Part shown: in pieces, positions 16,857 to 33,600 of the stretch | Numbering within the stretch: the first letter of the stretch is position 1 | Layout of the letters: each line of letters starts with the position of its first letter | Assembly (NCBI RefSeq): GCF_033153115.1 | Contig: NW_026889805.1 | Span: 13,702,001-13,766,000, forward strand | Length of the DNA: 64,000 nt | Direction of reading: 5' to 3' | Origin: Saccostrea echinata | Lineage: Eukaryota | Program-made: the position numbers and the translations under genes | The notes under the pieces: model-generated | Databases searched by the model: none | Told to the model about the DNA's origin: nothing | The model's input: the letters and a program-made list of their open reading frames with translations, nothing else

Positions 16857-18973
16857 AAAGAGTATTTACGGAGATATGAATAGAAACGGGTGTGAATCAT
16901 AAGCAGAACTTTAATATAGAATCGTTATGAATAAATATACTAAAGTCTGTCCCACGGTACCAAGGACCTCACTTTTCGCCTCATATCTCAAAATGTATAA
17001 ATACCTTGGCCTTCAAACTAGGTTCGATCGATAGATCATTTTTTTTCCAAACTTCCTGCATTTATCCGAACCCTCGAGTTCAACCGGTGTATTGACACGG
17101 CGGCAAATTCAAAGTCTACGGGGATTTAACATGGTAAACTCGTCCATTAGCGTCAAGATCACGGGGCAGGAAACCAGTTTATCGAGGGAGTAGTCGTTCT
17201 TTCCAAATTAAAATTACAAAATATCCTGAAAATTCAACGAAAGTAATTCAATGTGATTTGGTAAATAATATAAGTATTGTTTTGCATTCAAATATATTTT
17301 GACGAGTTTTCTCATAAAATGAGAGAAAATAATCCGAATTCAATGCAGTACAAGTTGTGGATATTGAGGTCACGCATTTCCTCTAGAAACGGATGTTGAC
17401 ATGGTGCAAGAATGTGTTATTTACAGCTTCATTTGTTGAAAATGTAGTAAGATGGTAAGTTGTTGTCCTTTTCTTTATTTTATACCATACATACACCTAA
17501 GAAAGAACTGTTTCAAATGCTAAGAATAAGTCAAAATGTACGCACAAGTGCCCCATAATATGTTACATGTCTGAGAAAGAGAGATAGAGAGAGAGAGAGA
17601 GAGAAAAAACCGAAAACTGACATTTTATCAACTTATTTAATAAAACTATTAGGAAAAAAAGAAAGCATACAAATACACCTTTTAATTATTATAACAATGA
17701 CTCTCTTTTTTATTAAAAGCTGGTAGATCTTTATTTATTCATTTTATTGCATGATTATGTACATACATGTATATGATGTATAGTCTGTCCCAGGGTACCA
17801 AGGACCTCACTTTTCGCCTCATATCTCAAAATGTATAAATACCTTGGCCTTCAAACTAGGTTCGGTCGATAGATCATTTTTTTTCCAAACTTCCTCCATT
17901 TATCCGAACCCTCGAGTTCAACCGGTGTATTGACACGGCGGCAAATTCAAAGTCTACGGGGATTTAACATGGTAAACTCGTCCATTACAGGTCAAGATCA
18001 CGGGGCAGGAAACCAGTTTATCGAGGGAGTAGTCGTTCTTTCCAAATTAAAATTACAAAAAATCCTAAAAATTCAACAAAAGTAATTCAGTGTAATTTGG
18101 TAAATAATATAAGTATATTTTTGCATTCAAATATATTCTGACGAGTTTTCTCATGAAATGAGAGAAATAATCCGAATTCAATGCAGTACAAGTTGTGGAT
18201 ATTGAGATCACGCATTTCCTCTAGAAACGGATGTTGACATGGTCTGGTGCAAGACTAGACTGTATTATTTACAGCTTCATTTGTTGAAAATGTAGTAAGA
18301 TGGTAAGTTGTCGTCCTTTTCTTTATTTTATACCATACATACACCCAAGAAAGAACTGTTTCAAATGCTAAGAATAAGTCAGAATGTTTGCATAAGTGCC
18401 CCATAACATGTTACATGTCAAAGAAAGAAAAAAAACGAAAACTGACATTTTTTTATCAACTTATTTCAAATCATAAAACTATTAGGAAAAAAAGAAAGTG
18501 TACAAATACACCTTTTAATTATAATTACAATTACTTTTTTTATTAGAAGCTGGTAGATTTTTATTTATTGATTGAAATGCATGATCATGTACATGTAGGT
18601 CGATCTACTTTCACTTTGAACATTTCATGCATTTGGCAGTCACTATCTATATGATCCATAACAAGCAAAATTTTACACTTATGTGAAGTGTCAGCACCTT
18701 GACGAATCTTTATACAGTTTTATATATATAACAAATATTTTGGACACTCAAGATTTTTTTTTCTGAACTTTTTAGTTTTTTTTTTTTACAAGACTGATAG
18801 AGTTCTAAGGGTCTTCTGTACTGTTTTAACATACAGAGCTATTGGATATTGCTAGTGTATAAATATATAAATAGATGTTACATGTTGATCGATGCAGTCC
18901 AGATTTAACTATATTTCAAGAGTAAATTAACTTATCTACTGCATGTTTTGCCCAAGATGAAAAATCAACATAA

Positions 18974-19800
18974 CAGGGGTAGACAAATAGAAATTGTCAG
19001 TACTTCTCCAGGAGTAGGACAGGTTACCATCGTAAAATTACCTTTCCTGCCAAAAAATATGCTTGTCCCACCTTTTTCTTAAATAACACAAAACTACAAC
19101 ATTATCATTAACATTTAGGACCAACCTTGACCCAAAATCACTAACTCTCCCATAGAGAAATTAAGGGTAAAATTTCTAATTCTAGGGAGACTTCCTAGCG
19201 TCTGCGCTGTGCATTGATTATTAAACTTAAAATTTTAAATACATGTACATGTCAATGTAAATACATAAACATGTACTTATATGTTTCACTGTATTTTTTA
19301 CATGAAAAAAATACACTTGTATCTACATTATTGTGTTATTAAAAAAACTCCTGAATGTCAATTAAGGGTTCAACTTCATGACTGTGTGTGTTCGCCACGT
19401 CAACACCTCCACTTTAATAACAGCAACATGTGTTTGTATCATGTATTCATGGCATGATTTTTACATTTTGACAAAAGAAAGGTCCAAAATCCTCTTCAAC
19501 TTTTTTGACATGACATTGATACTTCTCATATATATATATAATATATTATCAAGACATGAATGGGCAATTCTAGAGAAGTTCCTACTGAGTGTTCGATGTA
19601 GTGGTCAACTGCATCGAAAACAGATACTCTGCTGTGATTCACTGTATTTTAACAACGGTAAAACAAAACAACATTTGAATATATGATTTTTGTTAGCTGG
19701 AAAACATTTGTCCGCGGGCCGAAACCAGTTACCAAATAACTTGCCCACCAAACAAAATTGGTTGTCCTGGGCATCAGGCAATGCTATTTGTCTAGCCCTG
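18974..19800. mobile_element. hAT5-like non-autonomous element, 5-bp TSD
   Basis: CATAA-CAGGGGTAGACAAATAG ... CTATTTGTCTAGCCCTG-CATAA; empty site at ~28225 in the outer copy. Confidence 0.75.
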
Positions 19801-30525: not shown

Positions 30526-30604
30526 TGACAATGACTACAACGACAGACAACGGACAATTTTCAATCAGAAAAGCTCACTTGAGCCTTTGGCTCAGGTGAG
30601 CTAA
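29840..30604 (+). mobile_element. Satellite-carrying HINE (Cg170-like units)
   Basis: ACAAGAGGCCCAGGGGCCACATCGCTCACCTGAG head, about 166-bp units, GAGCCTTTGGCTCAGGTGAGCTAA end; empty site ATAAATAAAAGG at ~21762. Confidence 0.8.
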
Positions 30605-33600
30605 AAAGGTCAAGGTCAAAACACTAACATAATAAAGGTCAAAAAGCAGAGATCATTTAAATTGTAAATGGGCACATCACTGATCTGGTTCGTGTCCCTT
30701 TTTCAGTTTATTCATGTTATTCAACACCTGCATTTGAAGGACTAATTATTGATTAAAGCATTGAAATAAAGAAGCAGCATTTACCTTTTTATGTTTTTAT
30801 TAATTACAAAAAAAAAATAATTTGAAGGTATTAATTTATTGGAATTCATTGTTATGATGAGCAGACATCAAGAATTGAAGGCACACATGCATGTAATGGA
30901 CAATCCACTCAAATTTTTTAGAATAAAGTGTTTGGAGTTCATCTAGATGAAACATACTCGAACAAGTTTCAGGACATTCTTCTGGATGGTCTGGGCAGTA
31001 AGTATATACATTTAAACATTTATATGAATATTTAAAAAAATGTCTTTTTTCTTTCTGAAGTGTATACTTGGCCTGGTATCTGAAATTAAAAAAATCATCA
31101 TGTATTTTTCATATGTACAGAAAGCATTCATGATACATGTACAAATGAAATCATTAATTTGAATTTTCATTATTCCTTAATTTCACTTTACAGAGACTTA
31201 AAAGTTTAGTTTTTTTTTCTTTTCTTTTTTTCATGCACCAGTTAATATGTGTATTATTGTATATCTTTTTCAGGTCCAAAGAATAGTCTAAACCAAAGAT
31301 TACCAGGGAGTTTGCCCAGTGATCACTTGATGAGCTAGACACAAATTGAAGTGTTAGTGATATAATGGAGAGAAAAATACTCACTTTCTAATCCATTCAT
31401 AGATGTTTCTCTCCTCAGCTTCATGTTTATTATGTCCAATATGAGTCATGACTTTTCTTTTGTACCAATTGACATTCAAACCATGGACACCAGCAGCACT
31501 GAGCATTTTACTTTCATTTCTTCTTCAGTCTGAATATCTAAAAGATAATCTGAATAAATATAGGGTAGACAATTCATTTACCTCTTGGAATATTTTTCAA
31601 TTTTACTTAAAATGCTGAAAACAGTTCAAACAAAATTACAAATAACATAGTATGTTGAGTGGTTTTACCCTGTAATTTCACTAATTTAAGATTTAAGTAA
31701 TTTGAGATTTGATATTTTTACAACTTGTAATTCAAGTTTTATAACAATTTTCACAGTATGAATTTAATTTGCAAAGCAGAAGTTGTAAATTTTGATATCC
31801 ATTGATATGTCAAAGTGATTTGGAAGTCCCAACCATTTTAAAATTCTTGAAGTATTTTACCCTTGATATCTTGAATACTCAGATATCTCAGAAGTTTTTA
31901 TCAGTCCCATTGTCCCATTGTAGGATAACGAGGTTTGACAACATAGTTTGAATTGAAAATGTTTGGTTCCCACCGCACACACACTTAAATTGCTTCCCAT
32001 GGGCCTGACCCCATGAATTAAAAATGATTTCACAGATGACTGTAGACAAATTAAAAAAAAAAGAAAGAAAGAAAATGAAAACTACATGCACGTTTCTGCA
32101 CCTACTTAAGGTTGAATTAATTTAATTAATGTGCATGTTTGCTTGCTCTTGTCTGTATGATATATCTTCATGTTCTCTTTCCTAATAATCAAATTCTTGT
32201 TTCAAAATAAAAATGCTTAATTTAGTTTTATCTAGTTAAGTTTTATCTATTGTTTTTATTTTACTTTTCATTGCTATTATAATTTAAAAAAAAGAAATAA
32301 TGAAAGGGCTTTGACTTGCATTTCTTGCAAATGTAGAATTTTTTCACATTGAAATTTAAAATGCAGCTCCTGGTCTCAAAAGTTTTATTAATTTGTAAAT
32401 CATTGAAATTTCTGTCACAAAAGTTTTTATATTAAAAGGAAAATAAAGTATACAAATAAACATAATAATTTAAAAAAAAAAAAATGTATTCCATTCATGT
32501 TTAGGGGTTTGTGTGATTACTACACGTACCTCTGTATTTTATTTTTGGCATCAGAACTGCTACACATATGGTAAAGCTATTAAAAATACATAATATTGTT
32601 TGAAATCCCAGGGCCTGCATTTACCTAATGTCGATACAGGAAGTTTTCAAAGGGCAAGGTCAAAATCCATTGATGACGTAGTTTGATGCAGACAACATGT
32701 ATATCTTGTTTTCATGTTTTGCACAGTGATTCAAAATGTCTAAACGTGGATTTGTATGTGCTTAAGAGTTATAAATGTAACAAAGCCAGGAAGCGTTGTG
32801 AATTCATGATAGAAGTGATGTTTCACAAACTGTTTAACCGTGTTTACAACAAACTATAGTATATACTGCCTAGTGTGTTGGATTTATTTGCGAGGCAAAG
32901 GTAAAGTTGTAATTAATTACAAATCTAAATTATTAGAACATACTAATACTCGCTTACAGATAGATCTATCATGCTATGTTTTGGTAAAGCAATGATGTCA
33001 CTTGGCTGAATTTTGTTGTACTATAGCCTCGATCGTTCTTTCCATTACATTGTCAGTGCAGTTATGACTTCTGAAGTAGATATGAGTTAAATCTTACCTC
33101 TTTTCTTAGTAGTGTTAAGCACTTGTTCCCGGGTACGTCGAAGACGCTGTTTTGCTATTTCTTCGCTGATAAATCTGTGTGTATTGGGCACTTGGAAAGT
33201 CTCGGGCTGTATTGCGTTCCGTACATCGGTAAGCACAGAGAATTCCCGAACGTGTATACGTCATTACGTCACTGACGGCGATGTACGGAAAATCACGAAT
33301 AATGATGGATCCCCTTCCGAAGTTGCGGCCATTTTGGCAATGTTAAATCCCCGTAGACTTTGAATTTGCCGCCGTGTCAATACACCGGTTGAACTCGAGG
33401 GTTCGGATAAATGCAGGAAGTTTGGAAAAAAAAATGATCTATCGATCGAACCTAGTTTGAAGGCCAAGGTATTTATACATTTTGAGATATGAGGCGAAAA
33501 GTGAGGTCCTTGGTACCGTGGGACAGACTATAGTATAACAAAAATGGCGTAGGTACTCCCCATCTAAATCAATAAATAAAAAAGATGTACCACTATATTT

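Follow-up and report, generated by a model that had tools for sequence, protein, structure and literature searches.

Sailor (DD82E) transposons are defined by a transposase with a DD78-111E catalytic domain, and their published description covers compact elements that encode it (PMC8533490). Their terminal inverted repeats (TIRs) begin with GT (or CC) after TATA-like letters and measure 18-1362 bp, or 34-237 bp in molluscs, from 17 species of which the group is reported; TIRs of 235/237 bp occur in Haliotis rubra (PMC8533490). A 4-bp TATA target site duplication (TSD) was presented as a defining difference from Tc1/mariner elements and argued to reflect altered target recognition (PMC8533490), whereas the IS630-Tc1-mariner (ITm) group in general duplicates TA (PMC10045372). 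Here we describe a large TIR element that has inserted into a copy of its own family in a 64,000-bp stretch of the Saccostrea echinata genome (contig NW_026889805.1, positions 13,702,001 to 13,766,000, assembly GCF_033153115.1; hereafter the window).

Pack-type elements (Pack-MULE and similar) enclose a spliced, non-transposase gene-like interior between TIRs and are moved in trans, as appears to hold here; the present element differs in that no donor host gene was found and in its ITm/Sailor-like ends. Galileo of Drosophila belongs to a P-like superfamily, different from that of our element. The Galileo TIRs are 0.2-0.7% apart within copies 1 and 2 and ~7% apart between copies, and Galileo copies gather nested insertions, as ours do, but the TSD is 7 bp, the TIRs are ~600 bp and the nested guests belong to other families (PMC2775673). 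TLEWI elements of bivalves are ITm-related and contain spliceosomal introns; they lack TIRs and keep a DD36E transposase, whereas here the TIRs are intact and a transposase was not found (bioRxiv 10.1101/656579).

The closest likeness is to Sailor as published (PMC8533490), in the TATA-GT ends, an identity of 10 letters to three elements and a TIR length in the mollusc range. The present element differs in four respects: it contains no DD82E transposase or remnant; its core is 4.7 kb rather than 2.2-2.5 kb, with copies swollen to 6.4 and 10.1 kb; its interior is a probable decayed multi-exon gene; and its duplication reads TA, not TATA. We interpret the locus, with a probability of about 0.65, as a nested TIR family with Sailor (DD82E)-type ends and without a transposase, whose cut-and-paste movement likely depends on a Sailor transposase supplied in trans from another locus of the genome.

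Results

Nested architecture and empty site

One copy of the TIR family lies within another, at a TA that has been duplicated. Self-comparison of the window located four TIR arms, two left arms followed by two right arms. The inner copy (17781-27922; 10,142 bp) is inserted 838 bp from the left end of the outer copy (16943-33530), which without it measures 6,444 bp and is colinear with it end to end in a global alignment. In the four-way alignment of the 190-bp TIRs, three columns split the outer arms, L1 and R1, from the inner arms, L2 and R2. L2 and R2 differ at 0/190 positions; L1 and R1 are distinguished by one substitution, which makes the first base of L1 an A and its first letters AAG rather than TAG, and by a single additional T within a run of Ts. 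The outer copy is flanked by TA at either end (16941-42 / 33531-32), as is the inner copy (17779-80 / 27923-24).

The break in the outer copy is exact to the base. Its left part (16941-17764) aligns to 17779-18594 at 89.7%, its right part, from 27923, aligns colinearly with the inner copy from 18596 to the right end, and the outer interior resumes precisely at its break, at 27925. The corresponding unbroken target site within the inner copy is a single TA at 18596-18597, and the rejoined empty site of the outer copy is a 12-bp palindrome centred on TA. The four flanks of the two copies all differ from each other, and the sole run of Ns in the window, at 61560-61687, is not near the nest; together with the arm order, these observations do not fit a tandem duplication, which would have produced left-right-left-right, or a simple haplotig join. 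An initial annotation made from the sequence had proposed two nested elements rather than a tandem duplication, with three diagnostic motifs pairing inner with inner and outer with outer arms, an insertion depth of ~840 bp and an empty TA at ~18596. The self-comparison, which it had suggested as a dot-plot, and the alignments bear out each of these points, the motifs corresponding to the same three alignment columns; the TAG..CTA ends that it described are present at three arms, L1 being the exception.

A search of the window for further copies of the TIR end found none: it gave seven matches at <=2 mismatches, four of which are the known arms, against a chance mean of 3.3. Contigs from four of the 14 public sequencing runs found were aligned to 27700-34700. 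Those of runs X1 and X6 match the outer interior with 0-1 differences, including across the edges of a passenger present only in the outer copy. The indels of an X1 contig at 32748-32997 (12 differences) agree with neither copy and may point to a third one.

Ends and superfamily

The ends of the element, TATAGTCTGT, match three published Sailor elements (Amphibalanus, Anoplophora and Ladona; PMC8533490 Data S1) at 10/10 letters in three of the four arms. Three arms read TATA-GTCTG and L1 reads TAAA-GTCTG, placing GT after TATA-like letters. Among 73 rows of Table S3 of the same work, GT starts 43 left ends and GTCTG 3, and TAAA variants are present (PMC8533490). The 190-bp TIR lies within the length range of mollusc Sailors. 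A motif scan fetched 40 metagenome loci with a DD82E E-motif, 12 of them with near-full DD81/82E proteins; full TA-N-AGT inverted ends occur in 3/40, and locus L025 matches the ends of the element at 12-13/14 letters. The inner part of the TIR had 0 matches in the supplement text of PMC8533490, as far as that text was covered, and an exact search for the TIR end pattern among viral and metagenome contigs was negative. None of the literature searched on DD82E/Sailor and related elements names this family, which is possibly already in Repbase or Dfam.

As a separate observation, five of the metagenome contigs (L004, L005, L009, L011 and L039), each 1.7-3.6 kb long with a DD82E-type motif, carry TGTGTTGGG-type telomere-like repeats at both ends. 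By analogy, they may resemble ciliate nanochromosomes carrying a transposase gene.

TAG..CTA ends resemble an Academ terminus, a possibility that the initial annotation had raised while leaning towards ITm on the 2-bp TA duplication and calling the superfamily ambiguous. Under this placement of the ends the duplication is 2 bp at both insertions, and lengths of 3, 4, 6, 9 or 10 bp all fail. TA flanks both insertions and is present at the empty site, consistent with the ITm leaning. The TSD is 3-4 bp in AcademX, 9-10 bp in AcademH and 6 bp in IS3EU, whose termini are TA..TA (PMC10045372). The Academ idea therefore fails on TSD length. The TAG..CTA ends do agree with the TA..TA termini of IS3EU/GingerRoot, and IS3EU was rejected because the 6-mers differ at both insertions under either placement of the ends. 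Polinton, with a TSD of 6 bp, was discarded on the same ground. Given the match of the ends to Sailor/DD82E, the affiliation is much less ambiguous than had been proposed.

The duplication in Sailor

If TA was duplicated, a single 13-bp indel accounts for the empty site; a TATA duplication calls for a substitution in addition to an indel. The spot is prone to slippage, and the site lends moderate support to TA over TATA. Stronger evidence comes from the published Sailor records, where non-palindromic "TSDs" (TATT, TATT, TACA and TACT) are inverted at the far end in 4/4 records checked and direct in none (PMC8533490); loci L018 (86-2346) and L025 (2-2905) have the same inverted pattern, with TAAA. 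Because the far ends carry inverted letters, the last two letters would belong to the TIR and the TA reading would be right: the published "TATA TSD" looks like TA followed by the first two letters of the TIR. No correction of the TATA claim was seen in the parts of the literature on Sailor and DD82E that the search covered.

Transposase search

The window and the insertion-free cores were searched with a hidden Markov model (HMM), with tblastn and with four motif profiles built from 12 DD81/82E proteins. No DD82E transposase remnant was detected in either (HMM best E 0.19 in the cores; nothing by tblastn), and the four motif profiles scored at shuffle level in both. As a control for sensitivity, 8/11 40-amino-acid pieces of a held-out, 25%-mutated DD82E member were found at E<1e-4. 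A Pfam scan of 32 + 5 peptides gave no DDE family and no paired or helix-turn-helix domain, the DD82E branch being the only one with a dedicated profile. Thus no DD78-111E transposase was found within the element. Because the defining transposase is absent, we do not file the family as a member of Sailor; it is a non-autonomous, Sailor-ended element rather than a Sailor member proper.

A candidate spliced gene in the interior

An exon model was built by hand on the minus strand; it has five exons and starts at an ATG that lies 8 bp inside the right TIR. Its 196 codons contain 4 stops, where the null gives 11.7 on average (P 0.0065 for a fixed frame, 0.017 when the best of three is taken). A frame in the left arm (18021-18419) has 3 stops in 133 codons compared with a null mean of 9.0 (P 0.07 as best of six frames). 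All six modelled donors, at 33097, 32624, 31581, 31384, 31303 and 30784, and 5/6 acceptors are kept in both copies.

Matches to public runs were dominated by the HINE-like repeat, and the run search returned no matching run recorded as RNA and none with half of the query words. Record 23 of the X5 contigs (418 nt) aligns to 33323-33098 with 0 substitutions and one gap, its last aligned base directly preceding the GT donor at 33097 on the minus strand; it continues for a further 191 letters elsewhere. Run X5 also has a depth of 33 without differences at 31417 and 31433, and from this equal depth of 33 we infer that record 23 joins the exon at 31537-31385. Run X10 gives deep cover at 32649 and 32719, within candidate exon 2.

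Codon-position and exon/intron tests of the model gave no signal of selection. The word-indexed protein search of the exon peptides was empty in 3/3 queries, phmmer with a 47-amino-acid open reading frame (ORF) found 0 matches among 1.84 billion representatives, and a PDB search of the exon peptides gave nothing below E 0.14. In Pfam no exon peptide exceeded a curated cut-off, the sole exception being a Fasciclin control outside the element, and Rfam gave 0 hits in 16500-34000. No homologue that would identify a host gene, as in Pack-type elements, was therefore found with these queries, whose short, decayed single exons make for weak searches. The initial annotation had called the element non-coding; this stands in that there are no intact ORFs, but overlooks what is probably a spliced transcript unit whose reading frame has decayed. 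The interior is probably a gene that was dead before the two copies split.

Divergence of the copies

The cores differ at 237/3359 aligned sites (7.1%), and private insertions amount to ~5.4 kb in the inner and ~1.7 kb in the outer copy. At the core rate, 0/190 differences between the arms of the inner copy would have P 9e-7; the arms of the two copies differ from each other at 3/190 shared sites, again fewer than the core rate predicts (Fisher P 0.0015). A TIR-like contig of run X10 (record 16), a run that carries another organism label, is ~89% alike and extends across the TA. At 27807 X10 agrees with the inner copy, at 27838 with the outer. If X10 is an outgroup, this mixture implies a separate change in each lineage that became fixed in both of its arms, and such an outcome requires copying from arm to arm; fixation of this kind in each copy is likely. 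The within-copy likeness of the Galileo TIRs makes homogenisation of arms a known behaviour of long TIRs.

Some features of the cores stand apart. The block 25550-25975 / 31373-31797, the best conserved of all, holds candidate exons 3-4 and diverges by 2.8% compared with 7.1% overall, which recent conversion or constraint on the region may explain. A 249-bp inverted match (71%) links the shared core at 20084-20318 with a distant segment at 61241-61473, perhaps an old passenger already present before the copies separated. The passenger at 22170-24685 (2.5 kb) has TTCGG-rich subterminal repeats and short inverted ends and lies in a (TA)n microsatellite. Other repeats in the window resemble the HINE Helentrons of the Pacific oyster (PMC7492417).

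Table 1. Coordinates, strands and evidence for the parts of the nested element
Feature	Positions	Strand	Basis
Outer left TA target duplication	16941-16942		Flank comparison
Outer left TIR L1, 190 bp, first base A for T	16943-17132	+	Self-comparison, four-way alignment
Outer left interior, with left-arm frame counterpart (17571-17182, minus, 4 stops)	17133-17778
Inner left TA target duplication	17779-17780		Flank comparison
Inner copy, core ~4.7 kb plus ~5.4 kb passengers	17781-27922	+	Alignment
Inner left TIR L2, 190 bp	17781-17970	+	0 differences to R2
Left-arm frame P0004, 133 codons, 3 stops, candidate last exon	18021-18419	-
Empty TA target within inner copy	18596-18597
Inner-copy passenger: TIR element, CAGGG-type ends, itself likely interrupted	18973-19800
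Inner-copy passengers: Helentron/HINE-like repeats	20623-21625		Resemblance to PMC7492417 descriptions, no database match
Inner-copy passenger, 2.5 kb, short inverted ends in (TA)n run, with further HINE-like repeat	22141-24740
Inner-copy passenger, HINE-like, internal 157-bp repeats	25111-25549
Two small inner-copy passengers	26287-26515, 26561-26838
Inner right TIR R2	27733-27922	-	Four-way alignment
Inner right TA target duplication	27923-27924
Outer-copy passenger: miniature inverted-repeat transposable element (MITE), GGCC ends, TTA duplicated	28666-29077
Outer-copy passenger: GGCC-ended MITE	29556-29802
Outer-copy passenger: HINE-like repeat	29836-30603
Candidate exon 6, with predicted AG/GT and a frame disrupted by indels	30785-30990	-
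Candidate exons 3-5, predicted	31614-31582, 31537-31385, 31334-31304	-
Outer-only passenger	31798-32078		Edges spanned by 0-difference X1 contigs
Candidate exon 2, predicted	32625-32760	-
Exon 1: ATG at 33332, 8 bp inside from right TIR; GT donor 33097	33098-33332	-
Outer right TIR R1, 191 bp	33340-33530	-	Four-way alignment
Outer right TA target duplication	33531-33532

Genomic setting

ORFs place three HSP70-like genes, which we take to be of the HSPA12 type, at 3407-6502 (-), 11418-16142 (-) and 34292-43108 (+), and the 16.6-kb nested block lies between the two divergent ones. An X5 contig begins at 34300, ~770 bp from the right end of the element. An intron of the third HSP70-like gene contains a large foldback-like structure (35317-39922). 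It comprises several inverted arm pairs, which reach 397 bp at 97%, together with a 21-bp tandem repeat; the arms of an inner pair lie at 36491-36592 and 38805-38906. Farther along, exons of a fasciclin-domain gene occupy 46505-58128 (+), with a Pfam Fasciclin match of E 3.9e-18 for 57826-58128.

Discussion

The interpretation that we prefer can be set out as follows. The mobilising enzyme would be a Sailor transposase that reads the outer letters of the TIR, as the likeness of the ends suggests. The ~4.7-kb interior would be a multi-exon gene in decay, with transcription directed inward from the right TIR and splicing retained; this gene may have been captured or may have been an accessory, dead before the copies split. 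Within each lineage the arms would be kept alike by arm-to-arm copying, through gene conversion or template switching in gap repair, and selection for movable ends would help to maintain their likeness. Both copies likely moved recently with their passengers aboard.

Several observations weigh against this interpretation. The link to Sailor is confined to 10-14 terminal letters, and TA followed by YAGT is a general pattern of Tc1 and pogo elements too. The core of 4.7 kb is about twice the size of mollusc Sailors (2.2-2.5 kb; PMC8533490). The exon model was picked by hand, and its P becomes 0.075 when the frame is left free for each exon; substitutions are not enriched at third positions (9/13/9), divergence is hardly lower in exons than in introns (6.3% vs 7.2%), and strong donor motifs are equally common on the plus and minus strands (5 vs 5). 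Run X5 is marked only "RNA?", and the joint in its contig and the partner exon are not among the matches listed (15 of 2,484). Identity of the arms could arise by conversion in place and by itself gives no date for the insertions. Finally, among the matches listed for the four runs in 27700-34700, no contig piece bridges 27922/27925.

A broader version of the preferred interpretation, which we hold only tentatively, would make the locus part of a family of large Sailor-ended "carriers". Its members would have a promoter in the TIR and a spliced gene of no known family, either captured or the accessory of a two-gene Sailor; they would be mobile at a length of at least 10 kb while ferrying transposons, their arms would be re-homogenised repeatedly, and the empty site would record that Sailor duplicates TA rather than TATA.

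The alternative that survives best, although we consider it unlikely, is an ordinary non-autonomous ITm element moved by another TA-duplicating transposase (Tc1, pogo, L31 or similar), in which the Sailor-like end would be one variant of the widespread TA-YAGT end, the interior is non-coding and its spliced RNA arose by chance. A TA TSD is general for ITm elements (PMC10045372), none of the exon peptides yielded a homologue, and the ORF statistics under the generous null (P 0.075) come without any signal of selection, all as expected for such an element. The agreement of the ends with Sailor, at 10/10 letters to three elements and at 12-13/14 letters to L025, nevertheless exceeds YAGT, the 190-bp TIR fits that of the Haliotis rubra Sailor, and an ATG-anchored frame stays in phase across five exons, all of which favour Sailor-type ends around a decayed gene.

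We regard as quite improbable that the spliced gene, now decayed, encoded an intron-rich transposase belonging to the element itself, of a type too distant for our profiles, and that the family is thus a dead autonomous one instead of a cargo carrier. The predicted gene does span TIR to TIR, starting 8 bp inside the right one, and run X10, with its other organism label and a TIR ~89% alike, is deep over exons 1 and 2, both of which would suit such a gene. The HMM and motif searches gave no DD82E signal despite a control sensitive to 40-amino-acid pieces, and the 32 + 5 peptides contained no Pfam DDE family, both of which count against this possibility.

There is still less to recommend the idea that the nest is an artefact of assembly, through a haplotype mis-join, or that two originally separate insertions were brought together by ectopic recombination. 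The lack of a listed contig piece from the four runs across the inner right junction would agree with either, but the break coincides to the base with the TIR ends and has TA on both sides, the four flanks differ, no Ns lie nearby, and the copies are 7% divergent and set apart by many private insertions; ectopic recombination would, moreover, tend to mix the diagnostic pairing of L1 with R1 and L2 with R2. Least credible of all is a non-autonomous Academ or IS3EU element, to which the TAG..CTA ends and, for IS3EU, the TA..TA termini (PMC10045372) would be suited, with only 2 bp duplicated here instead of 3-4 or 9-10 bp (Academ) or 6 bp (IS3EU).

Self-nesting alone is ordinary, and nothing in this locus is categorically new biology. 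If the broader version is true, the Sailor group, so far described as compact elements, would come to include a large Sailor-ended carrier whose spliced gene is not a transposase, and with it cargo transport in animals. A plain TA duplication in Sailor would also bear on the argument for altered target recognition that was built on the TATA duplication (PMC8533490). For the oyster itself, the nested block between divergent HSP70-like genes may be a regulatory polymorphism.

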